DNA of 64,000 nucleotides from an uncultured Cryomorphaceae bacterium (GTDB taxonomy: Bacteria; Bacteroidota; Bacteroidia; Flavobacteriales_D; Cryomorphaceae), in the NCBI GenBank assembly GCA_964635965.1, contig CAZWQX010000001.1, forward strand, positions 18,014 through 82,013, read 5' to 3'. Position numbers and translations under genes: made by a program. Within the stretch, counting starts at the first letter, position 1. Every line of letters starts with the position of its first letter. The notes beneath the pieces were generated by a model. That model had not been told where the DNA came from. It worked only from the letters and a program-made list of their open reading frames with translations, and did no database searches. This document shows, piece by piece, positions 40,071 through 50,548 of this stretch.

Positions 40071-41177
40071 ATGAACGACTTTCTCGGCTACAGCCTTTAC
40101 GAATCTGAAGTTGTTTCGATTACGATCGGAAACATTTTGTCGTTGCTACTGATCATTGTAGCCACCCGTTTCCTTCTTCGTTTCTATAAGGTATTTGTCC
40201 ATCGAAAAATTCGAGCTTTAGACGTTTTCGACAAGGAAAGGGAACAACTTTTTCTGAAATCGGGAAGGAACATTCTACTCGCGATCAGCACCGTGATAGC
40301 AATAATTAGCTTAGGACTTTCACCCTTACTAGAGCTAATATTTGACTATACCCTCTTTCATACTGAGAATGTAGAAATAACAGTCGGCAAGATTCTCATA
40401 TTCATATTAATCCTCTTCGTCGCAAGGATAATTTCAAGATTGATTCGAATCATTCTGAAAAAGAACTTTTCGCGTAAAGCCTGGGTTGATGAGGGTAAAG
40501 AATACACCGTATTTAAGCTAACGAAGTACGGGCTTTATGGGGTAGCCGTGCTGTTAGGGCTTACCAGTATTGGTATCGATATGAAGTTGATACTGGCAGG
40601 TGCAGGTGCGTTGTTAGTGGGTATTGGATTTGGACTTCAGTATTTATTCTATGATCTGATTTCAGGGTTGATCATTCTTTTTGAGGGTCCGATAAAAGTT
40701 GGAGATGTCATTGAAGTTGACGGTCTGGTTGCTCGGGTGAAGCAAATCGATATTCGGACTTCTAAAGTGATGACACGCGATGGGAAATACATCATCATTC
40801 CCAACTCCAAACTAATCGGAGAAAACGTGGTAAACTGGAGTCATGGTAGCACACTTACCCGATTTAATATCAAAGTAGGGGTGAAATACGGCAGCGATAC
40901 CGCCCTGGTGAAAGAGGTGCTTTACAACTGTGCTTTGCGCCATCCCGATGTGAGTAAGAATCGTGAAATAATTGTCCGATTTGACGACTTCGGCGATAGT
41001 GCCTTGATGTTTTCCGTTTTCTTTTGGGCGAAGAAAACCTGGGTTGTTGAGACCCTACAAAGTGAAATCCGATTTGACATTGACCGTCAGTTCAGAGAAC
41101 ACGATATTCACATTCCTTTTCCTCAAAGAGACCTGCACATCATCAGCAACCCTGATTCCAGAGCTAAGGAAACCTGA
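40071..41177 (+). CDS. Small-conductance mechanosensitive channel (MscS family)
   Basis: GIGFGLQ...DLISG, IKVGDVIE, IIPNS, VGVKYGSD, IPFPQRDLH. Confidence 0.92.
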   Translation: MNDFLGYSLYESEVVSITIGNILSLLLIIVATRFLLRFYKVFVHRKIRALDVFDKEREQLFLKSGRNILLAISTVIAIISLGLSPLLELIFDYTLFHTENVEITVGKILIFILILFVARIISRLIRIILKKNFSRKAWVDEGKEYTVFKLTKYGLYGVAVLLGLTSIGIDMKLILAGAGALLVGIGFGLQYLFYDLISGLIILFEGPIKVGDVIEVDGLVARVKQIDIRTSKVMTRDGKYIIIPNSKLIGENVVNWSHGSTLTRFNIKVGVKYGSDTALVKEVLYNCALRHPDVSKNREIIVRFDDFGDSALMFSVFFWAKKTWVVETLQSEIRFDIDRQFREHDIHIPFPQRDLHIISNPDSRAKET

Positions 41178-42951
41178 GATCCTTGGCGACGAGCTGAATT
41201 GTTCTTTTCCCTTTCCAGTTGTTCTCTTCAATCGTGTATGCCAACTCAAATGGAATCCCTCGGCTTATTGCCTTTATATGGTCAGCAAAGCCAAATGCAA
41301 TAACGGGTAGCAGGGACGACGGCTTACCATCTTGAAAAACCTTCATCTTTAAATGATTATCACCGACGGGATAAACTTCTTTTGCGCGACAATGAGGGGT
41401 AGAGAAGATTGGAGGCAAATTATCGGGACCAAAAGGCCTGAATTTATTTAATTGAGCAAAGAATTCGGGATAATTGTCAGAATACCAATCGCAAAAGTCC
41501 AAGGACAACGCCAAATTGAGTTTTGGTTTCAATTCCTTTCTCTCAATCTCCTCAGAAGCTATTTTCCTGAAGGCCAGCTTAAAGGCCTCAAAATTGTTCG
41601 ACTCTAAGGTTAATCCTGCTGCAGCTGAATGACCACCATGTCGTACAAGATATGTGGTCAATCTGTTTAGAGCATGACTAATATTAAATCCCTCCACACT
41701 TCTTGCACTTCCAGTGAATACACCTTCTTTTTCGGAAAAGACAATCGTAGGACGATGGTATACCTCCATTAAGCGAGAAGCGACAATTCCGATTACTCCT
41801 TTATGCCATGAACTGTCAGCGACGATTGTTGCGGAATGGTTTTCGCTGCCTTCCTCTTCTCTGACTTTTAATAATGCGGCCTCTGTAATTTTCTTGTCAA
41901 GATGCTTGCGTTCATTATTGAGTACTTCTATATGGTCTGCTCGCTCTTGAGCTCTTTCAGTATTTTCCTCTGTCAGAAGCTCCACTGCATGCTTTGCATG
42001 TTCCAACCTTCCTGCAGCATTAATCCTAGGACCAACCTTGAAAACCACGTCACTTACATTAAGAGGAGTAGACGACTGACCTGCGGTTTTCAGGAGGGCT
42101 TTTATACCGGCATTCTTAGAATTACTGAGTACTGACAGTCCTTTAGAAACGATTGCCCGGTTGACACCTATCATTGGTACAATATCACAACAAGTAGCAA
42201 TGGCCGCGAATTCGAAGCTAGAATCAAGATCTTTCTCAACTACGTTGAACCTAGGTGCAATGCTTCTAATTAACATCAATGCTACTCCGCAACCGCAGAG
42301 CACTTTATCTTTAAAAGAACAGTCTTCTTGTTTGGGATTTAAAATCGCATTTGCTTTCGGAAGCGTTCTACCTGCTTCATGATGATCGCAGATAATTGTT
42401 TTAATCTTGGACTGGCTTAACCTGTCTATTCCTTCTATGGCACGAATACCACAATCAAGAGTTATAAGCAAGCTAACACCATCTGCATCAGCAGCTTCAA
42501 CCCCCCTTTCACTTAATCCATAACCCTCATTGTATCTATCAGGTATATAGTAGTCAACGTTAGCTCCCAACTTTTTCAAGAATAGGTACATCATTGCTAC
42601 GGAGCTTACTCCATCTACATCGTAATCACCATAAAGTCGGATATGATTCTTATTTCGAACCGCTTCTTCCAATATATCAGTGGCAATTTCGAGGTCCTTG
42701 AGATATCCTGCATTCGAAATTCTTGATAGATCAGTTGAAAAATAGTCTTGAATTTCACTACCGTTCGTCAATCCTTTTGCCACTAATAAAGAAGCAATTA
42801 CAGGATGTAAGTTTGAAAATCGTTCGCAAAGCTCATGAACCAAACTTGTTGATGGTGAGTTGGGTTCGATCCACTCAAATCTTGTGCTGAATGGCTCTCT
42901 GACATTTTCAGAAGTATGAAATCCTGTTTTTGGAATCATCGATTCACTCAT
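41164..42951 (-). CDS. recJ: Single-stranded-DNA-specific exonuclease RecJ
   Basis: GDYDVDG, IPDRYNEGYG, TLDCG, CDHH, GPRINAAGR, GSARS, GGHSAAAG. Confidence 0.96.
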   Translation of the reverse strand: MSESMIPKTGFHTSENVREPFSTRFEWIEPNSPSTSLVHELCERFSNLHPVIASLLVAKGLTNGSEIQDYFSTDLSRISNAGYLKDLEIATDILEEAVRNKNHIRLYGDYDVDGVSSVAMMYLFLKKLGANVDYYIPDRYNEGYGLSERGVEAADADGVSLLITLDCGIRAIEGIDRLSQSKIKTIICDHHEAGRTLPKANAILNPKQEDCSFKDKVLCGCGVALMLIRSIAPRFNVVEKDLDSSFEFAAIATCCDIVPMIGVNRAIVSKGLSVLSNSKNAGIKALLKTAGQSSTPLNVSDVVFKVGPRINAAGRLEHAKHAVELLTEENTERAQERADHIEVLNNERKHLDKKITEAALLKVREEEGSENHSATIVADSSWHKGVIGIVASRLMEVYHRPTIVFSEKEGVFTGSARSVEGFNISHALNRLTTYLVRHGGHSAAAGLTLESNNFEAFKLAFRKIASEEIERKELKPKLNLALSLDFCDWYSDNYPEFFAQLNKFRPFGPDNLPPIFSTPHCRAKEVYPVGDNHLKMKVFQDGKPSSLLPVIAFGFADHIKAISRGIPFELAYTIEENNWKGKRTIQLVAKDLRFP

Positions 42952-42983
42952 TTATCAATGTGATCACTAGAAACAACTTTGAT

Positions 42984-42991
42984 TATATTTG
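42984..42991 (+). promoter_or_regulatory. -7 promoter element for the Cys-rich lipoprotein gene
   Basis: TATATTTG, 56 nt upstream of the ATG. Confidence 0.5.
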
Positions 42992-43047
42992 GGCGTCTCT
43001 AGTGTATACAATCACTGGGATAATAGCCCGTATCCAACCTTATTTAG

Positions 43048-44715
43048 ATGAAATTTAATTTTCTGAGACTACTCTTCATCACCGTTTCGATTGCTTTTGC
43101 CGTTACCTCCTGTAGGAATGAAGATAACAAAATCGAGCCTACTTGTTTCGATGAAGTCCAAAATCAAGGAGAAACAGGAATAGACTGCGGAGGACCATGT
43201 GAAGAATGCCTTCCAACTTGCACCGATGGGATCGCTAATGGAACCGAGTTTTTTATTGACTGTGGTGGGGAAGAATGTTTGCCTTGTGCAACATGTGACG
43301 ATAATATTCAAAATGCTCACTGGGTATTTGATCCGAATCTGACTATGGCCGATTTCGGAAGTGAAGGAGTGGGTATGGCTAATGGAGTACTTTTCCGCCT
43401 TGTAATGGAACAAGGAATTGATTGTGGCTATCCTTGCGAAAACTTCTGTACTCCGACTTGTGATGACGGAATCCAGAATGGTGATGAAGAAGGGGTTGAT
43501 TGCGGAGGAACGCTTTGTGAATTTCCCTGTCCTCCGCCAAATTGCGCTGATGGAATTCAAAATGGTCTTGAGACAGGAGTTGATTGTGGGGCACCTGGTT
43601 GTCCTGATTGTCCAATGCCTACGTGTAATGATGGCATTCAGAACGTTCATATTGAATACGTAGAAATCAGCCCTTCAGCGCCGCAAGGATATATTGTGGT
43701 AGTAGAAGAAGGAATTGACTGCGATAGCAATTTCGAAACGTCTTGTCCGGATTGTCCGCTTCCAACATGTTTCGATGGAATTTTAAACCAAGGTGAAGAA
43801 GCCATCGACTGCGGAGGTCCTTGCCCGAATGCTTGCGACCCAACACCGAGCTGTGCCAATGGAATACAAGACGGTACTGAAACCGGAGTGGATTGCGACG
43901 ACGATCCGAATACTCCTTGTCCTAACTGTGCCACCTGTTCAGATGAGATTCAAAACGGTCCTGAACTAGAAGTTGACTGCGTTGATTATCCTATTCCCCA
44001 ATACGATGGTGGAACGTGTGCACTTTGTATTTCTTGCCACGATTTGGTTCAGAATCAGAATGAAGTTGACGTGGATTGTGGAGGTCCGAATTGTGAGCGA
44101 TGTACTCAGTTCATTACCGCAACCGGAATTGGTGCCGGTGATAACCCAAGCAGTTTTGCCGACCAACAAACTTTCAATGAGTTATTGGCCACTGCGGGGC
44201 AAGACACTCTCACGATAACCGCTTCTACAGGTCCTGATGGCTTGTTTATTGAAAAGGTTAGCAACTTCTCCGGACCTGATTATCTAAAAGCAACAGCTAT
44301 TTCAGAATTAGAAACTCCCGAGGGAGAAAGATTCAGGAGAACGCTTGTGTTATATCTGCCGATGCCGGAAGGAATTGGACAAGATAATCCTGTTCCTGTG
44401 ATCTTGATTCCACCCCTTCTTCCAACGGGTGATATTGGATTCCCTATTGAAGAGGTACCATTTATATTCTATCGTGAGGAGCTTGTAGGAAATCCAAATT
44501 TTGTAGTCAGAAATTTCTCTTCTTGGAATATATCCATGGATGCAGAGTTGACTTATACTTATGAATTCTCGGATGTCCTAAGTGGTTTTTATGTGCAAGG
44601 AAGTTTCTCTGATCTAGAAATAGTTGCCCCTATTTTTGTTCCAGGTGGAGATGATGAAGCAATTCTCGGTTCGGCAAATGGAATTTCGTTTGCCTTTGAT
44701 TATTCTCCATTCTAG
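43048..44715 (+). CDS. Lipoprotein with ten Cys/Asp-rich repeats and an unknown C-terminal domain
   Basis: Lipobox AVTSC; repeats of TCxDGIQNxxExGxDCGGxCxxC. Confidence 0.8.
   Translation: MKFNFLRLLFITVSIAFAVTSCRNEDNKIEPTCFDEVQNQGETGIDCGGPCEECLPTCTDGIANGTEFFIDCGGEECLPCATCDDNIQNAHWVFDPNLTMADFGSEGVGMANGVLFRLVMEQGIDCGYPCENFCTPTCDDGIQNGDEEGVDCGGTLCEFPCPPPNCADGIQNGLETGVDCGAPGCPDCPMPTCNDGIQNVHIEYVEISPSAPQGYIVVVEEGIDCDSNFETSCPDCPLPTCFDGILNQGEEAIDCGGPCPNACDPTPSCANGIQDGTETGVDCDDDPNTPCPNCATCSDEIQNGPELEVDCVDYPIPQYDGGTCALCISCHDLVQNQNEVDVDCGGPNCERCTQFITATGIGAGDNPSSFADQQTFNELLATAGQDTLTITASTGPDGLFIEKVSNFSGPDYLKATAISELETPEGERFRRTLVLYLPMPEGIGQDNPVPVILIPPLLPTGDIGFPIEEVPFIFYREELVGNPNFVVRNFSSWNISMDAELTYTYEFSDVLSGFYVQGSFSDLEIVAPIFVPGGDDEAILGSANGISFAFDYSPF
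43141..44103 (+). repeat. Ten tandem, degenerate protein-level Cys/Asp repeats
   Basis: Counted by eye from TCFDEVQNQGETGIDCGGPCEEC to SCHDLVQNQNEVDVDCGGPNCERC. Confidence 0.85.
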
Positions 44716-44733
44716 AAAAATTCAACTCATTTT

Positions 44734-44766
44734 AAAAGGCCGGTCTTGATCGGCCTTTTTTTTTTT
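44734..44766 (+). terminator. Intrinsic terminator
   Basis: AAAAGGCCG-gtcttgat-CGGCCTTTT followed by a long T run. Confidence 0.85.
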
Positions 44767-44893
44767 GAAATTCTTAATCGGCCGAATAACTATTTCAAAT
44801 AATAAGTATAATTATACCGATAAGTGGAGATCCGAAACCACAAAAACGAGGCGTTACCGAAAAGCCAAATGAGTAGGACCTAATTAATATATT

Positions 44894-45184
44894 ATGAAGC
44901 TATTTAAAAATCTCTTTTTCCTCGGTGCGGGAATTATGATGCTCAGTTCATGCTACGTAAATACCGTGGTTGTAGGAAATGGAGCTCAAGGAAACAAAGA
45001 AGTCAAAGCTTGGAATCATTATGTGATTTATGGATTAGCGCCTGTTGGCGTAGCCGATCCTGCTAAGCTCGCAGGAGACGCCAAGGATTACGATGTGGAA
45101 ATCAAGCACTCATTTGTCAATGGATTAGTTGCCGGTTTAACCTTTGGAATCTACACCCCCACAACTACGACTGTAATTAAGTAA
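44894..45184 (+). CDS. Bor/Iss family lipoprotein
   Basis: Lipobox LSSC; WNHYVIYGL and HSFVNGLVAGLTFGIYTP pattern. Confidence 0.8.
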   Translation: MKLFKNLFFLGAGIMMLSSCYVNTVVVGNGAQGNKEVKAWNHYVIYGLAPVGVADPAKLAGDAKDYDVEIKHSFVNGLVAGLTFGIYTPTTTTVIK

Positions 45185-45208
45185 TACGGTCAACATCCGC
45201 AGAACAAG

Positions 45209-45403
45209 ATGAAATTCATTTTTGGAATATCCATTCTGATCCTCCTAATCAGTATTATCATGGGAATTCGAATTTTGATCATTGTAAGTTCCGGCGAAGT
45301 CACCCCATTTGGTTACGGCTACTCTACCGGAATACTTATTCTATTTACCATAGGATTGCTCGGTACGATTCTTTCAGGAAGAAAGATATTCCGAGAAAAC
45401 TAG
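45209..45403 (+). CDS. Small two-TM membrane protein
   Basis: 64 aa, two hydrophobic helices; lies between bor and a terminator. Confidence 0.55.
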   Translation: MKFIFGISILILLISIIMGIRILIIVSSGEVTPFGYGYSTGILILFTIGLLGTILSGRKIFREN

Positions 45404-45426
45404 GAGAGTTACAATTTGAACAATGT

Positions 45427-45458
45427 AAAAGGCGACACCAAATGGTGTCGCCTTTTTT
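45427..45458. terminator. Bidirectional intrinsic terminator
   Basis: AAAA-GGCGACACCA-aa-TGGTGTCGCC-TTTTTT; T tracts on both strands; separates the bor block from the tRNA-like gene. Confidence 0.85.
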
Positions 45459-45459
45459 G

Positions 45460-45574
45460 CTGTAGGGGAAGGATTCGAACCTTCACGGAGCAGTTAGCCG
45501 ATAGCAGCGCCGATTTATCCCTTAACTCCACCCCCGAGACAGGAGGGCATGTCTGCCGGTTTCATCACCCTACA
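45460..45574 (-). tRNA. Non-canonical tRNA-like RNA: Asp (GTC) anticodon, 46-nt variable region, 115 nt
   Basis: TGTAGGG/CCCTACA acceptor + G73; ATG/CAT D stem with GG; CCCTC-CTGTCTC-GGGGG anticodon arm; GAAGG-TTCGAAT-CCTTC T arm. Confidence 0.85.
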
Positions 45575-45702
45575 TTGTTGACACTAAGGTATATTTAATA
45601 CCGATAAAATGCATATTTCGTTACTATTTATGATTATTTTTACGATATAATCAAAATATAGCCGATCCATTGCATATTACGCAATCCAATCTAAATAATT
45701 GA

Positions 45703-46182
45703 ATGAGCAATTACCAAATTGACAATGTAGATCTCCAAATTCTGGAAATTCTTAGCGAGAATGCACGAACTGCTTACACGGAAATCGCCGAAAAGCTACT
45801 CGTATCCCCGGGAACCATTCACGTCAGAATGAAAAAAATGGAAGCTGCCGGAATGGTAAAGGGTACTGAAATCGTAGTAGACCCAATCAAACTGGGATTT
45901 GATCTTACCGCTTTTATTGGCGTTTTCCTTGACAAGGGCGCCACATACAATGATGTGATAGATCAACTCAAAGAAATTGACGAGATCACCGAGGCATACT
46001 ACACAACAGGAGGTTACAGTATCTTCTTGAAAGTAATGTGCAAGAACACGGAAAACCTAAGAGACGTGTTAAACCAAAAAATCCAAAGAGTAGGGGGAAT
46101 TCAGAGGACCGAGACTATCATCTCTCTTGAGCAAAGCATTCGTCGAAAGGCACCGCTAAGAACGATTAAACCCAGGCGTTAA
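45703..46182 (+). CDS. asnC: Lrp/AsnC family regulator, close to E. coli AsnC
   Basis: NARTAYTEIA..L.VSPGTIHVRMKKM, EAYYTTGGYSIFLKVMC, QRTETIISL. Confidence 0.88.
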   Translation: MSNYQIDNVDLQILEILSENARTAYTEIAEKLLVSPGTIHVRMKKMEAAGMVKGTEIVVDPIKLGFDLTAFIGVFLDKGATYNDVIDQLKEIDEITEAYYTTGGYSIFLKVMCKNTENLRDVLNQKIQRVGGIQRTETIISLEQSIRRKAPLRTIKPRR

Positions 46183-46262
46183 ACTTTTTTTCGATTTCTG
46201 TCCCCGAACCTGAAATCAGTTTCGTCACTTGAGTAAATTAATAATCTTAAAAACTAATTATC

Positions 46263-46613
46263 ATGAAAGACTACATGCTGTTATTCTTGGGAGCTGATTA
46301 CGGGACACTAGGATTATCACCGGAAGAAATTCAAATGAGAATGGGTAAATGGATGTCCTGGTCGGAAAAGTTGTACGAAACCGGAATAGCCAAAGGAGGG
46401 GAGGCTTTACATGCCGATGGAATTAAGAGAATCTCGGGAGCCGATCAAACCGTAACCGATGTTGCAGCCGCCGAGCTTAAAGAACTAATTGGCGGATATT
46501 TCATCGTCAAAGCCAACAATGTTGAAGAGGCCATAAAAATTGCCGAAGATTTTCCCGATTACGATCTGGGAGGAACGGTTGAAGTAAGAGAGGTCATTGT
46601 TTTCGATCGATGA
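46263..46613 (+). CDS. YciI/DGPF-like protein
   Basis: YMLLF, GGEAL, KELIGGYFIVKA, GGTVEVREV (the DGPF motif itself is degenerate). Confidence 0.8.
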   Translation: MKDYMLLFLGADYGTLGLSPEEIQMRMGKWMSWSEKLYETGIAKGGEALHADGIKRISGADQTVTDVAAAELKELIGGYFIVKANNVEEAIKIAEDFPDYDLGGTVEVREVIVFDR

Positions 46614-47860
46614 TTGAAGGCAACAAACAAATAGATCATCTTTTCCGCCATCAGAGCGGGAAGATGGTCTCTGTTTTTACCCGAATATTCGGTCTTCACA
46701 ATTTGCAAACCATTGAAGATGCGGTCCAAGACACCTTTATACAAGCAGCTAAGGTTTGGCCAAAAAGTCCTCCCGACAATCCCGAAGGTTGGCTTACGAC
46801 AGCAGCTAAGAACAGAATCTTAGACCTTTTTCGAAAAACAAACTCAGAACGAGATCGGCACCTGAAAATTGACTTCGGGGCAACCGCTATTCCAATCCAA
46901 GAATTATTTTTGGAAGGAGAAATCGAAGACAGTCAACTTCGAATGATCTTTACTGCATGCAACCCCTTACTGGACAGCAGGGATCAAATTTCATTCGCAT
47001 TAAAAACAGTTTCGGGGTTCAGCACGAAAGAAATTGCCAGTGCTCTTTTGACCAAGGAGGAAACGATCAAGAAAAGACTAAGCAGAGCTCGAAGAGCCAT
47101 TTCTGATAATCAAATCAAATTCGAAATTCCCACAGGTAACGATCTTAATGAAAGAAGAGGTAGAGCCCTTTCGGTCATTTACCTCATCTTTAATGAAGGG
47201 TTCCACTCGACAAATAAAAACCAACTGATTCGTAAAGATCTCTGCGCTGAGGCAGCACGACTAGTCAAGCTGATATCTAATCACCCCTTAGCAGGTCACC
47301 CAAGTGCGCACGCGGTGCATGCATTGTTTTGCTTTCATTCTGCACGGCTTGACACAAAAATTGATGAAAATGGAGATGTAGTTAGCCTTAAGGATCAAGA
47401 TAGAAGCTGTTGGAATAAGGAGCTGATTTTTCTGGGTAATGCCTCAATGCATGAAGCAATGAAAACCGATAAGTTTTCGGTCTTTCACTATGAAGCAGCC
47501 ATAGCTTCAGAGCACGTGATTGCCGCTTCGTTTGAAGCTACCAATTGGAAAAATATCCTGCATTGTTATGAACGTTTGAATGCACTAAAACCTTCTTCAA
47601 TGAATAGTTTGAGTATAGCCACTGTATACCTTCAAATGAAAGAATTCGATCGCGCAAGAAGAATTCTCGATAGCCTCAATCCAAAGGAACTTGAGCAAAG
47701 GGAATACTTATTCTACGGACTTAAATCAGAATATCTTTTTCTTAAAGGTGAACGCACAGCTGCCGTCGAGGAGTTAGACAAAGCAATTGGACTTACGCGA
47801 AACGAACACGAAAAGAAATATCTCTTGACCAAAAAAGCAACGTTCATCGCATCTAAATAA
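46610..47860 (+). CDS. ECF sigma factor with C-terminal TPR-like extension (ECF42-like)
   Basis: EDAVQDTF, WLTTAAKNR, LRMIFTACNP, IYLIFNEG, LHDQ-like LKDQDRSCW; coupled to a YciI-family gene. Confidence 0.85.
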   Translation: MIEGNKQIDHLFRHQSGKMVSVFTRIFGLHNLQTIEDAVQDTFIQAAKVWPKSPPDNPEGWLTTAAKNRILDLFRKTNSERDRHLKIDFGATAIPIQELFLEGEIEDSQLRMIFTACNPLLDSRDQISFALKTVSGFSTKEIASALLTKEETIKKRLSRARRAISDNQIKFEIPTGNDLNERRGRALSVIYLIFNEGFHSTNKNQLIRKDLCAEAARLVKLISNHPLAGHPSAHAVHALFCFHSARLDTKIDENGDVVSLKDQDRSCWNKELIFLGNASMHEAMKTDKFSVFHYEAAIASEHVIAASFEATNWKNILHCYERLNALKPSSMNSLSIATVYLQMKEFDRARRILDSLNPKELEQREYLFYGLKSEYLFLKGERTAAVEELDKAIGLTRNEHEKKYLLTKKATFIASK

Positions 47861-47938
47861 TTCCAATAACGAAAAGGGTATCGTCAAATTCTATTTAACG
47901 ATAGCAAGAGTAAGTGTCTGATCAACGCAAAGTCTATT

Positions 47939-47946
47939 TACCTTTG
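47939..47946 (+). promoter_or_regulatory. -7 promoter element, near-leaderless cysH transcript
   Basis: TACCTTTG, 4 nt before the ATG. Confidence 0.55.
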
Positions 47947-47950
47947 GCCT

Positions 47951-48604
47951 ATGAAGGTTCAGGAAATCCATTCTGAGTTGAAAAACATGCTTGAAGAAGG
48001 TAAGAAACTCTTTCTCACCTCCTCATTTCAAACACACTCTATTCCACTTCTTCACATCATAAGTAAATTAGATCATGCCATTCCGATCTATTGCTTAAAT
48101 ACAGGGTTTTTGTTTCCCGAAACACTGGCCTTTAGGGATAAACTTGCTGATGAATTCAATTTAGACATCCGCACCATTTCGTCAACCGTTCCGAAGCATC
48201 AGCAACGCGACGCAAATGGAAATCTCTTCTTCACTTCCAATCCTGATTACTGTTGTCATATCAATAAAGTAGAGCCTACAGAAGGGCTGCTTCGCGAATA
48301 TGATGTTTGGGTTAACGGTGTACGTGCGGACCAAAATCTCAATAGACGGAACATGAAAACATATCAGAACGCGAAGTTCGGGAAGATGCGTTTCCATCCG
48401 ATTCTAGACTGGACTTCGAAGGATATCTACGCCTACATCAGAGAAAACGACCTGCCAAAGCACCCACTTGATGCAGAAGGTTACCAGAGCATTGGTTGTA
48501 TTCCATGTACACGAAAGATGGACTTAAGCGACCCTAGAGCAGCTCGCTGGTACGGATTGAGTAAAACAGAGTGTGGACTACACACGGAACTCGCTGAAAA
48601 ATAA
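47951..48604 (+). CDS. cysH: Adenylylsulfate/PAPS reductase, [4Fe-4S]-type motifs
   Basis: TSSFQ, NTGFLFPET, CCHINKVEP, GVRADQ, SIGCIPCT, ECGLH. Confidence 0.9.
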   Translation: MKVQEIHSELKNMLEEGKKLFLTSSFQTHSIPLLHIISKLDHAIPIYCLNTGFLFPETLAFRDKLADEFNLDIRTISSTVPKHQQRDANGNLFFTSNPDYCCHINKVEPTEGLLREYDVWVNGVRADQNLNRRNMKTYQNAKFGKMRFHPILDWTSKDIYAYIRENDLPKHPLDAEGYQSIGCIPCTRKMDLSDPRAARWYGLSKTECGLHTELAEK

Positions 48605-48608
48605 GGCT

Positions 48609-49520
48609 ATGAAAGTATTAATAACTGGAGGTGCGGGTTACTTGGGTACCGAAATCACGCTTCGCTTAATGCGAAATGCCAAAATTGATTCAATCAGAAT
48701 TTACGATAACCTAAGCAGAAAGAATTACAACATCTTCTTGGGTCCTGAAAAATTTAATGGGAAGGTGAGTTTTGTTGAAGCGGATATATTGGATTCATAT
48801 ACATTGGGAAAGGAGCTGGACCAAGCTGATACTGTCATACACCTTGCGGCAAAAGTTAGCACTCCTTTTGCCGATATAAGTCCTCATCTCTTCGACCAAG
48901 TGAATCATTGGGGTACGGCGGAGCTCAGCTATGCTCTGGAAAGATCGTCTTGTCAAAACGTGATTTATATGAGTAGTGCCAGTGTTTACGGCTCAGGTGA
49001 AGAAGCGGCAACTCCCGAATCCACTCCTAATCCGAGAACTTTCTATGGAATCTCAAAGCTCAAAGGCGAAGAACATATTTCAAGAATTGCTGGAAAAAAG
49101 GGAGTTTCAATCGTTCGTTGCGCCAATGTGTATGGCTACTCGAAGAGCATGAGGTTTGACTCAGTTATTAACCGTTTCGTTTTTCAAGCAAAGAATTTTG
49201 GGCGGGTGAACATCAATGGTTCAGGTGAACAAAAGAGAGCGTTCATAAACATAGAAAGGATTACAGATTTTATGGAGAAACTCATTTTTTCCAAGAATCG
49301 TAAGAAGATATACAATCCTGTAGATAGGAATCTTACTGTCAATGATGTAGCATATACATTAAAAGAAATTCTGCCCGAAATGGAAATGCTCTACGTGGAT
49401 CAACAATTAAAACTGAGAGAAATTAATGTAAGCGAGGATGCCAACGTCAGGGCTTTAATTGGACCACCCCAAACCGAGTTCAAAGAAGAACTTGAAATCT
49501 TTTTAAGCAAAATGGCTTAA
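48609..49520 (+). CDS. NAD-dependent epimerase/dehydratase (extended SDR)
   Basis: TGGAGYLG, HLAA, SSASVYG, YGISK; start set at ATG 48609. Confidence 0.88.
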   Translation: MKVLITGGAGYLGTEITLRLMRNAKIDSIRIYDNLSRKNYNIFLGPEKFNGKVSFVEADILDSYTLGKELDQADTVIHLAAKVSTPFADISPHLFDQVNHWGTAELSYALERSSCQNVIYMSSASVYGSGEEAATPESTPNPRTFYGISKLKGEEHISRIAGKKGVSIVRCANVYGYSKSMRFDSVINRFVFQAKNFGRVNINGSGEQKRAFINIERITDFMEKLIFSKNRKKIYNPVDRNLTVNDVAYTLKEILPEMEMLYVDQQLKLREINVSEDANVRALIGPPQTEFKEELEIFLSKMA

Positions 49521-50548
49521 GACCAAAATACGGCCAGCTTACCGATCGTTTTCCTTCCTTCTAAATCTGCATGCGCCTCAGAAATCCGCTCTACGGGATA
49601 CGCCTCGTGAATTACAGGTTTGAGGACCCCTTCTTTTGTAAGTTTCACTGCCTCTTGCATCGCAGCGGTGACAATTTGAGGTTTATAGTCTCCAACCTTT
49701 AAAATATTGATTCCAATTATTGACTTAGACCTCATCATGAGTGCCAAGGGAGTATAAAATCCTGTTTGCCACAATAGTTTCAATCCGGCCAACATTCCCT
49801 TAGAGCCACCTGCTCTGGTAGCTGCCCCAAAAATCACGAGTTTCCCACCAGCACCCAGTAATTTCAAGTCCTTCTTAATACTACTTCCCGCGAGAGAATT
49901 AAAAGTGGCATCTAGTCGACCTCCATTGAGAATTCGCATAACCTCCCTCTCATAATTCTTTTCTCGGTAGTTAATGGCATGTTGAACTCCCATGTTTTTG
50001 AGAAACGCCAGTTTATCAGGTTGGCTGGCTGTCCCAAAAACAATGCACCCCTTAGCGAGAGCCAGCTGACATAACATCAGGCCTACTCCACCTGCTGCCG
50101 CATGCACTAGCACTTTGTCTCCCTTGTAGAGATTCATACTTTCTTCCAAACAGATATAAGCAGTGCTACCTTGGGTTCCAAGGGCAAGGGCATTAGCAGC
50201 ATCCATCTCATCGGGAATTTCTGTGAGCGCGCGGTAATCTGTAGTTGCGTATTCTGCATATCCGCCGAAACGGGTGAGTGCTATCACCCTTTTTCCAATC
50301 AAATTTTGATCAGCATTGATTCCCGCTTTTTCAATTCTCCCAACCACTTCATACCCCAAAATACAGGGAGTTGGTGGCGTCTCAGGATACATTCCACTTC
50401 GCGCCAATACATCCGCGAAATTGAGTCCAAATGCTTCAACCTTTATTAAAACCTGAGATTCTTTGCATGGTGGAATATCCGTCTCGCGAATTTCAAAAGC
50501 ATTATCAGGACTACCGAATGATTTTAGAAAAACAGCTCTCATCTTCAT
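49517..50548 (-). CDS. Zinc-independent MDR quinone oxidoreductase (VAT-1/QOR-like)
   Basis: GLNFAD...G.Y, GYEVVG, HAAAGGVG, GRKTIGK. Confidence 0.87.
   Translation of the reverse strand: MKMRAVFLKSFGSPDNAFEIRETDIPPCKESQVLIKVEAFGLNFADVLARSGMYPETPPTPCILGYEVVGRIEKAGINADQNLIGKRVIALTRFGGYAEYATTDYRALTEIPDEMDAANALALGTQGSTAYICLEESMNLYKGDKVLVHAAAGGVGLMLCQLALAKGCIVFGTASQPDKLAFLKNMGVQHAINYREKNYEREVMRILNGGRLDATFNSLAGSSIKKDLKLLGAGGKLVIFGAATRAGGSKGMLAGLKLLWQTGFYTPLALMMRSKSIIGINILKVGDYKPQIVTAAMQEAVKLTKEGVLKPVIHEAYPVERISEAHADLEGRKTIGKLAVFWS

Follow-up and report, generated by a model that had tools for sequence, protein, structure and literature searches.

A tRNA-like RNA divergently paired with an AsnC-type regulator gene across Bacteroidota and its probable link to asparagine homeostasis

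We analyzed a stretch of 64,000 nucleotides (nt) of an uncultured Cryomorphaceae bacterium (assembly GCA_964635965.1, contig CAZWQX010000001.1, positions 18,014 to 82,013; hereafter the window), in which the gene of a 115-nt tRNA-like RNA lies divergently from a gene for an AsnC-type regulator. The two genes form a real, undescribed RNA-regulator module, whose RNA belongs to a large, well-structured and uncatalogued RNA family with a fixed genetic partner. Judged by its sequence, the RNA combines the nucleotides read by aspartyl-tRNA synthetase (AspRS) with a mark of the amidotransferase GatCAB and drops features needed for decoding. Because of these marks and of the conserved pairing with asnC, the RNA probably ties a non-decoding relative of tRNA to asparagine homeostasis. 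In Escherichia coli, AsnC senses asparagine and activates the divergent asnA synthetase gene, and asparagine can also be made on tRNA by AspRS and GatCAB. The original prediction for this locus had suggested that AsnC induces the RNA under asparagine limitation.

Fold and reality of the RNA

The following parts of the RNA were assigned (window positions, in the order of transcription).

45460-45574, minus strand: gene of the tRNA-like RNA, 115 nt, U1 at 45574 and G73 at 45460 (from sequence, fold and a 22-sequence alignment with covariation)
45568-45574, minus strand: 5′ strand of the acceptor stem, UGUAGGG, pairing with 45461-45467
45549-45565, minus strand: D arm of class II (tRNA-Leu) type, 3-bp stem AUG/CAU and 11-nt loop AAACCGGCAGA
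45531-45547, minus strand: anticodon-like arm, stem CCCUC/GGGGG, loop CUGUCUC with GUC at 45538-45540 and U37
45485-45530, minus strand: extra (variable) arm, 46 nt, basal stem GGAG/CUCC, conserved internal loop GAUAAA opposite CUAAC, variable distal hairpin
45468-45484, minus strand: T arm, GAAGG UUCGAAU CCUUC
45461-45467, minus strand: 3′ strand of the acceptor stem, CCCUACA
45459: C74, encoded directly after G73

The RNA folds into a cloverleaf with a 7-bp acceptor stem, a 3-bp D stem, a 5-bp anticodon-like stem, the 46-nt extra arm and a 5-bp T stem. A blastn search detected it in 21 of the 26 genomes belonging to its family, and also in a few further genomes of the order. When the cloverleaf was laid on 22 homologues, 96 % of the base-pair cells were paired, compared with 50-61 % after sliding the partners by one to three columns; the acceptor and T helices were paired in 100 % of the cells, and the T loop reads UUCGAAU. 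Compensatory changes occurred in five helices, including the anticodon stem, the T stem and the extra-arm helices 4-6, with pair 31-41 of the anticodon stem appearing as C-G, U-A and U-G. Over a wider set the D stem covaries as well (AUG/CAU, GUG/CAC, UUG/CAA, ACG/CGU), as do the acceptor positions 3-7. An alternative GGCA/UGCC hairpin replacing the D stem was rejected, since the 3-bp D stem covaries. With a covariance model true homologues scored 85-133 bits and two divergent full-length copies 42-59 bits, the next-best matches being ordinary class II tRNAs at 45-59 bits (tRNA-Leu(GAG) of the same genome, 58.9 bits).

Programs designed for tRNAs missed the RNA. ARAGORN reported only a tRNA-Arg in the window, the Rfam tRNA model RF00005 gave no match to the RNA even at E values up to 10, and a search of the window and 20 related loci against Rfam 15 at permissive thresholds yielded no match at the RNA. 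Nor did a full-text search of the literature disclose a paper describing this RNA family. The predicted designation as an Asp-tRNA-like RNA thus stands as a reading of the fold, not as the call of a tool (ARAGORN and the Rfam tRNA model). Since tRNA finders miss the RNA, the family is presumably unannotated in public genomes. Its gene has a normal tRNA-type 3′ end, as all ordinary tRNA genes listed for the genome end with the discriminator followed by C.

Three known kinds of tRNA relatives were considered and rejected: a YrlA-type Y RNA, as the RNA's own ends form the acceptor stem and Rfam gave no match; tmRNA, on grounds of topology, the tmRNA of the genome being encoded on another contig; and an allo-tRNA. 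Allo-tRNAs are defined by an 8/4 or 9/3 architecture of acceptor and T stem (PMC7609411), while that of the RNA is 7/5.

Conservation of the pairing with asnC

The regulator and the region between the two genes comprise these features.

45703-46182, plus strand: asnC-type regulator gene, 159 aa, HTH_AsnC domain and Lrp/AsnC ligand-binding domain (Pfam)
45575-45702: divergent control region, 128 bp, 26 % GC compared with 55 % GC in the RNA
45584-45591, minus strand, and 45635-45642, plus strand: candidate -7-like boxes of back-to-back Bacteroidota-type promoters
45610-45620 and 45671-45681: direct repeat TGCATATTNCG, candidate regulator boxes of putative role

The best NCBIfam model for the regulator was the AsnC equivalog NF008384 with 190.7 bits, a score below the curated cut-off of 227 bits; the next family reached 88 bits. 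Aligned to E. coli AsnC (PDB 2CG4), the protein gave 153 bits and an E value of 6e-44 over residues 1-148, the next solved relative 80 bits. Its strong likeness to E. coli AsnC, as claimed in the original prediction, was hence confirmed, as were the 128 bp of AT-rich DNA between the 5′ end of the RNA and the ATG of the regulator, and the lack of a nearby asparagine or aspartate enzyme, which holds for the ten open reading frames (ORFs) spanning 41164-50548. A promoter and terminator consensus scan of the region listed nothing useful; the promoter and operator roles within 45575-45702 are putative assignments.

The claim that the divergence of asnC and RNA is conserved across Bacteroidota proved true. 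By tblastn, asnC was divergent from the RNA at every locus of the own family, and the same arrangement occurred in seven further families of Flavobacteriales, with regulators of 54-62 % protein identity. Orthologs of asnC were detected in 42 of 151 Flavobacteriales and in 55 of 401 genomes sampled over the phylum. Twelve of 20 phylum-level loci inspected harbored the RNA divergent from asnC, two of them in another class. The pairing spans at least 12 families, two classes and other orders of Bacteroidota. Within 10 kb on each side, asnC was the only gene common to 20 loci from at least 12 families, and no other conserved protein partner emerged there. In 35 of 42 copies, drawn from many families, 124-171 bp separate the ATG of asnC from U1. 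In the spacer the blocks TAAAAATA and TTNGCAAT...TAnnTTTG are conserved, along with back-to-back Bacteroidota-type promoter elements, and a CGAATAT-type motif is enriched (9 of 37 spacers versus 1.25 expected, in genomes that are related). Three members of the own family have neither the RNA nor the asnC ortholog; in a fourth, a stretch of N stands at the RNA site.

A pattern scan with one genome per species gave at least 120 matches, 80 of which were listed by name. All 80 belong to Bacteroidota, among them Pedobacter, Mucilaginibacter, Hymenobacter, Algoriphagus, Cyclobacterium, Fulvivirga, Chitinophaga and Saprospiraceae. At these loci asnC was adjacent in 45 cases, a contig end cut off the neighborhood in 11, and 24 copies were not beside asnC. 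No conserved neighbor was found at the latter 24 loci; five of these genomes were checked and all five carry an asnC ortholog elsewhere.

Multiple copies were also encountered. Persicobacter diffluens possesses five tandem copies with a period of 172 bp (L148, 6448-7230), which are not beside asnC. A genome of the same genus as the window (G003; L009, L027) contains two copies 1.7 kb apart, the second of which has GUU instead of GUC, adjoins a 77-aa asnC-like remnant and looks like a duplicated, decaying module.

asnC and the RNA might be neighbors by inheritance only, AsnC regulating something else. The 24 of 80 listed copies away from asnC, the presence of asnC elsewhere in the genomes checked and the phage copies without asnC (see below) agree with such a view. 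Yet asnC is the sole conserved neighbor over at least 12 families while the other flanking genes change, the spacing is near-constant, both genes are jointly missing in three genomes of the own family, and the module appears to have been duplicated in G003. Thus, the divergence of asnC and RNA is kept far beyond what shared ancestry of neighboring genes explains, and we give adjacency without function hardly any credence.

Conserved nucleotides of the RNA

Forty-two cellular copies were recovered through their T arm and acceptor pairing; this set is therefore not biased by the anticodon. U1-A72, G2-C71, G73 and C74 are fixed in all 42, while the remainder of the acceptor stem is free to vary. 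The loop almost always reads Y-U-G-U-C-N-C, with near-invariant U35, C36 and C38, and any of the four bases can stand at position 37. In one copy of this set A takes the place of G34, and one further copy outside it has C34; some copies show G33, and in one family the anticodon stem contains a U-U mismatch. The extra arm varies between 39 and 149 nt over the family, but its basal stem and the internal loop GAUAAA opposite CUAAC are kept, and the long forms have the common motif GGGUUGACCAC.

The RNA was compared with the tRNA genes of its own genome. Its loop differs from that of tRNA-Asp (CUGUCAC) solely at position 37; tRNA-Asp has A37 and G1-C72, the RNA U37, U1-A72 and the 46-nt arm. The D arm is near-identical to that of the tRNA-Leu genes, and the extra arm is preceded by one nucleotide and followed by GU, as in tRNA-Leu and unlike tRNA-Ser. 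The first three acceptor nucleotides, UGU, are the same as the 5′ end of tRNA-Gln.

Strong determinants of aspartate identity are G73, G34, U35, C36 and C38, G2-C71 being a minor one in bacteria (PMC9976931), and this whole set is present in the window RNA. Bacterial GatCAB picks its substrates by U1-A72 and the D loop, rejects G1-C72 and is deterred by a supernumerary D-loop base (PMC2811023). All 42 cellular copies and 50 of 53 distinct viral copies have the first-pair mark U1-A72. The D loop is of the long class II type with 11 nt, which the tail domain of GatB may or may not accept.

As a true decoder, the RNA would act as an unusual isoacceptor of tRNA-Asp or would mis-incorporate asparagine or serine at aspartate codons under special conditions. 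A full cloverleaf with canonical T loop, U8, A14 and G18G19, the gene end G73-C74 and the presence in phage tRNA clusters fit this idea; moreover, serylation is possible for class II tRNAs that have G73 and a long arm, and there are allo-tRNAs bearing GUC (PMC7609411). On the other hand, position 37 holds any base in cells and U in 53 of 53 viral copies, the anticodon stem is mismatched in one family, position 33 is G in some copies and position 34 is A or C in others, the arm extends over 39-149 nt, and some variants lack the anticodon arm altogether. Both arm geometry and D arm are of tRNA-Leu and not of tRNA-Ser type, and LeuRS is excluded because of G73; charging by SerRS or LeuRS was hence judged unlikely. 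In addition, the architecture is 7/5 rather than 8/4 or 9/3, and the genome possesses a normal tRNA-Asp. As far as the sequence can tell, U37 and the extra arm of 39-149 nt argue against decoding, and a decoding role is very improbable.

Asparagine synthesis genes and GatCAB

In two genomes a regulator of this kind faces an asparagine synthetase gene. The asnC ortholog of Pontibacter ummariensis, which scores 179 bits with the AsnC model, diverges from a gene for a 317-aa AsnRS-like asparagine synthetase A (306 bits versus NF005054; Pfam tRNA-synt_2 match), and in G028, a genome discussed below, an AsnC paralog is divergent from asnA (TIGR00669, 336 bits). Both arrangements are evidence that regulators of this group deal with asparagine, and they show the RNA in a position that an asparagine synthetase gene occupies in other genomes. 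The AsnRS-like enzyme was discarded as a general partner, since it was present only in Pontibacter among six genomes checked.

The genome of the window itself encodes asnA, five asnB-type genes and asnS, the gene for AsnRS. Contamination was rejected for the asnA contig, as its GC content matches that of the genome. Among the 151 Flavobacteriales, asnA is rare (6 genomes) and asnB-type genes occur in 129. An anticorrelation of the RNA with asnA or asnB was not found, asnA being rare everywhere and asnB-type genes nearly universal. The expectation that asnA and asnB are absent where the RNA is present fails, because the own genome and nearly all asnC-bearing Flavobacteriales carry asnB-type genes. 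Of the notion that the RNA lies in place of asnA, the positional part is borne out by Pontibacter and G028; replacement of the enzyme is contradicted by the asnA and asnB-type genes of the own genome.

By contrast, the predicted association of gatCAB with the asnC ortholog was observed. The own genome has gatB and lacks glnS, so that GatCAB is required anyway for Gln-tRNA. gatB was present in 41 of the 42 asnC-bearing Flavobacteriales, and in two families the genomes with asnC are exactly those with gatB (17 of 21 genomes in f17, 6 of 8 in f22), counts whose independence is overstated because the genomes are related. The exception, G089, contains a variant RNA with a UGUU motif, which is possibly an Asn-type GUU anticodon; asnA and asnB were not detected in this genome. 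In a third family two gatB-lacking genomes (G172, G378) keep asnC with an unrelated small RNA beside it. Altogether, no RNA of the present type was found in five gatB-lacking genomes with an asnC-type gene.

Two further observations concern the same genes. In the gatB-lacking genome G210 a more distant asnC-like gene is closely followed on its downstream side by a genuine tRNA-Asn(GUU) gene (L096, about 168-243) in convergent orientation. In fifteen small Flavobacteriales genomes of family f7, which have gatB, neither asnA, an asnB-type gene nor asnC was detected; these genomes may obtain asparagine by the classical tRNA-dependent pathway.

Other RNAs beside asnC

The place next to asnC is taken by different RNAs in some lineages. 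In G028 (L059, 2113-2555) the ortholog of the window regulator faces four tandem tRNA-like units. Such units of about 130 nt, also found in G089 and G109 (L072, L073), possess the acceptor end with U1-A72 and G73 and the T arm, and a different interior with the UGUU motif. They are preceded by a mini-unit of about 50 nt made up of acceptor stem and T arm only. Family f14 (L065, L066, L068, L070) harbors RNAs of 80-94 nt beside asnC that have no anticodon arm and keep the minihelix of acceptor and T arm, a GGCA loop, CUAAC and a UGCAAGG motif. Short RNAs not resembling tRNA were detected at six more loci (L067, L069, L074, L075, L078, L079). One type forms a hairpin AAGA-GGUAGUAG-UCUU followed by a terminator; the second consists of the motif GGUUAUAAUUGGUU and a terminator, and both of its genomes are without gatB.

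These variants bear on the possibility that the RNA is a sensor or regulator, i.e. a tRNA mimic that binds and thereby titrates or modulates GatCAB, AspRS or AsnRS, or acts through its extra-arm loops on an mRNA or protein, its level being set by AsnC according to asparagine. The universal core is a minihelix of acceptor and T arm with U1-A72, G2-C71, G73, a GG elbow and the CUAAC loop, and it survives in the variants devoid of an anticodon arm. Furthermore, the first three acceptor nucleotides match the UGU of tRNA-Gln, an obligatory GatCAB substrate here, and unrelated small RNAs with terminators in the same position fit a slot for regulatory RNAs. However, almost every copy retains U35, C36 and C38, phage copies detected independently of asnC among them. 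A pure acceptor-end mimic would not need these marks of the anticodon loop, and their conservation therefore tells against it. Also, no target was identified, and no partner gene besides asnC is conserved at the 20 loci or at the 24 loci without asnC. We regard the sensor as unlikely.

Phage copies

In GenBank phages no blastn match to the RNA was obtained, and the strict RNA pattern matched only one viral contig. A search of viral contigs with a looser pattern of the 5′ half gave at least 120 matches, of which 80 were examined. Seventy of the 80 contain a full-length RNA. Among 53 distinct viral copies, 50 have U1-A72, while G2-C71, G73, C74 and U37 are present in every one. Forty-two of the 80 copies lie within 1.5 kb of tRNA genes, some of them inside clusters of 13-25. 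None of the 80 has asnC.

The phage copies make it conceivable that the RNA protects the tRNA pool, serving as decoy or spare for tRNAs with GUN anticodons (Asp, Asn, His, Tyr) when anticodon nucleases or further defense or attack systems aimed at tRNAs are active, in phages as in cells. At least 120 viral contigs with the family, the full-length form in 70 of 80, the proximity of 42 to tRNA genes and the lack of asnC are in line with a decoy, as are the conserved U33-G34-U35 and tandem arrays of up to five copies. A decoy leaves unexplained the tight pairing with the asnC ortholog at fixed spacing, the invariance of U1-A72, the co-occurrence of asnC and gatB and the absence of the RNA from the five gatB-lacking genomes. 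Moreover, no nuclease or defense gene was a conserved neighbor at the 20 loci or at the 24 loci without asnC. Such protection is improbable.

Further features of the locus

A GC-rich hairpin between runs of A and T, read by eye 3′ of the RNA (45431-45452), is likely a two-way terminator serving the RNA on the minus strand and a convergent 64-aa ORF on the plus strand; it was not among the matches of a strict terminator consensus scan. On the plus strand, positions 44819-44883 match the DUF805 RNA motif (Rfam RF03081) with 66.9 bits, which exceeds the gathering score. This motif is located just upstream of a gene for a 96-aa Bor-family lipoprotein (44894-45184) and not of a DUF805 gene. The neighbor on the other side of the RNA is a gene for a 555-aa Cys-repeat protein without Pfam or NCBIfam match (43048-44715, plus strand), which is kept in the own family and not in other families. 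Directly downstream of asnC (46263-47860, plus strand) a YCII-domain gene overlaps the start of a gene for an ECF-type sigma factor (DUF6596 domain), a gene pair retained in close relatives only.

Discussion

The reading that we prefer makes the RNA an asparagine carrier. The AsnC-type regulator, presumed to be asparagine-responsive, would control a divergent promoter that drives a stand-alone, non-decoding tRNA relative. The RNA would be transcribed with a short leader and mature like a tRNA, i.e. by RNase P at the 5′ end, trimming at the 3′ end and completion of CCA after the encoded G73-C74. It retains the nucleotides read by AspRS (G73, G2-C71, G34-U35-C36, C38) and has U1-A72, the pair required by bacterial GatCAB, where tRNA-Asp has G1-C72. 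AspRS would load aspartate, GatCAB would amidate it to asparagine on the RNA, and U37 together with the giant extra arm would keep the molecule out of decoding. The product would either supply the asparagine pool or serve as a readout of it, with the RNA filling the slot of E. coli asnA. The analysis establishes the RNA with its fold and conserved marks, the conserved pairing with asnC and the co-occurrence of the asnC ortholog with gatB; we infer control of the RNA by AsnC, its charging and the amidation on it, its exclusion from ribosomes and the fate of the product. A carrier mechanism is plausible, if unproven. In its complete form, with AsnC control, charging by AspRS, amidation by GatCAB and a tie to asparagine supply or sensing, it is a tentative proposal to which we assign somewhat less than an even chance.

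Several observations weigh against the carrier. The genome needs no RNA route to asparagine since it has asnA, five asnB-type genes and AsnRS, and nearly every RNA-bearing member of the Flavobacteriales carries asnB-type genes. Its GatCAB is already explained by the lack of glnS, and in the order sample GatCAB is common without the RNA (89 of 109 genomes). The class II D loop contains extra nucleotides, a supernumerary D-loop base being an antideterminant for GatCAB, and a few copies have A34, C34 or G33. The f14 variants without anticodon arm should hardly be readable by AspRS, and these or non-tRNA-like RNAs occupy the same place in some lineages. About 30 % of the copies (24 of the 80 listed) are not beside asnC, and the viral copies lack asnC, roughly half of them being located close to tRNA genes. 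Finally, we know of no enzyme that releases asparagine from such a carrier.

One of the closest parallels is the tRNA-Asn of the indirect pathway (AspRS and GatCAB; Thermus, Deinococcus, Helicobacter), which is like the RNA in U1-A72, G73 and the GUN anticodon loop. On this tRNA aspartate is loaded and then amidated by GatCAB, as we propose for the RNA, and gatB is present here. The differences are the anticodon, GUU there and GUC in the RNA, as well as the tRNA-Leu-like body, the 46-nt arm and U37. Because the anticodon is GUC and not GUU, an ordinary discriminating AspRS would suffice. Unlike the tRNA-Asn, the RNA is paired with a transcription factor gene, in a genome that also has AsnRS, asnA and asnB-type genes.

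With the asnC-asnA pair of E. coli the module shares a regulator that aligns over its full length (153 bits), the divergence and a short AT-rich spacer, whereas its partner is an RNA gene instead of an enzyme gene and the NCBIfam score stays below the cut-off (190.7 < 227 bits). A divergent asparagine synthetase target as in E. coli is not found in the window, but it is for the Pontibacter ortholog and the paralog of G028. Class II tRNA-Leu resembles the RNA in its 3-bp D stem, an 11-nt D loop of nearly the same sequence, the place and flanks of the extra arm and the 7/5 architecture. It differs by A73 in place of G73, while the RNA has U1-A72, an Asp-type loop, U37 and an extra arm with conserved internal loops, which is two to seven times longer than that of tRNA-Leu.

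Non-decoding tRNAs and tRNA mimics such as YrlA Y RNAs, the tRNA-like domain of tmRNA and allo-tRNAs keep the tRNA scaffold for enzymes and relax decoding, as does the RNA. In this respect it presumably also resembles the cell-wall tRNA-Gly of Staphylococcus aureus and the tRNA-Other of Bacillus cereus. To our knowledge, tRNA-dependent amidation has been found only on decoding tRNAs, and AsnC only as switch of an enzyme gene. None of the named non-decoding tRNAs and mimics is known to be paired with an amino-acid regulator or to bear the arm of the RNA. YrlA, unlike the RNA, is circularly permuted. Allo-tRNAs are 8/4 or 9/3 (PMC7609411), which does not apply to the RNA.

It is rather doubtful, though an idea worth stating, that Bacteroidota and many of their phages use a dedicated, non-decoding and tRNA-shaped carrier for asparagine synthesis off the ribosome by AspRS and GatCAB, which would be induced by AsnC when asparagine is short and of which phages would bring a copy to boost supply. 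An RNA gene would then in effect stand in for the synthetase gene asnA. The question is directly testable because the family occurs in cultured, tractable genera (Pedobacter, Mucilaginibacter, Hymenobacter, Algoriphagus, Chitinophaga). If a regulator-controlled, non-decoding tRNA relative does carry aspartate to asparagine, this would wire amino-acid metabolism through an RNA in a new way and would define both a novel class of tRNAs acting outside translation and a novel type of auxiliary gene in phages. Should the mechanism prove wrong, the module still adds an uncatalogued structured RNA family with a fixed genetic partner.

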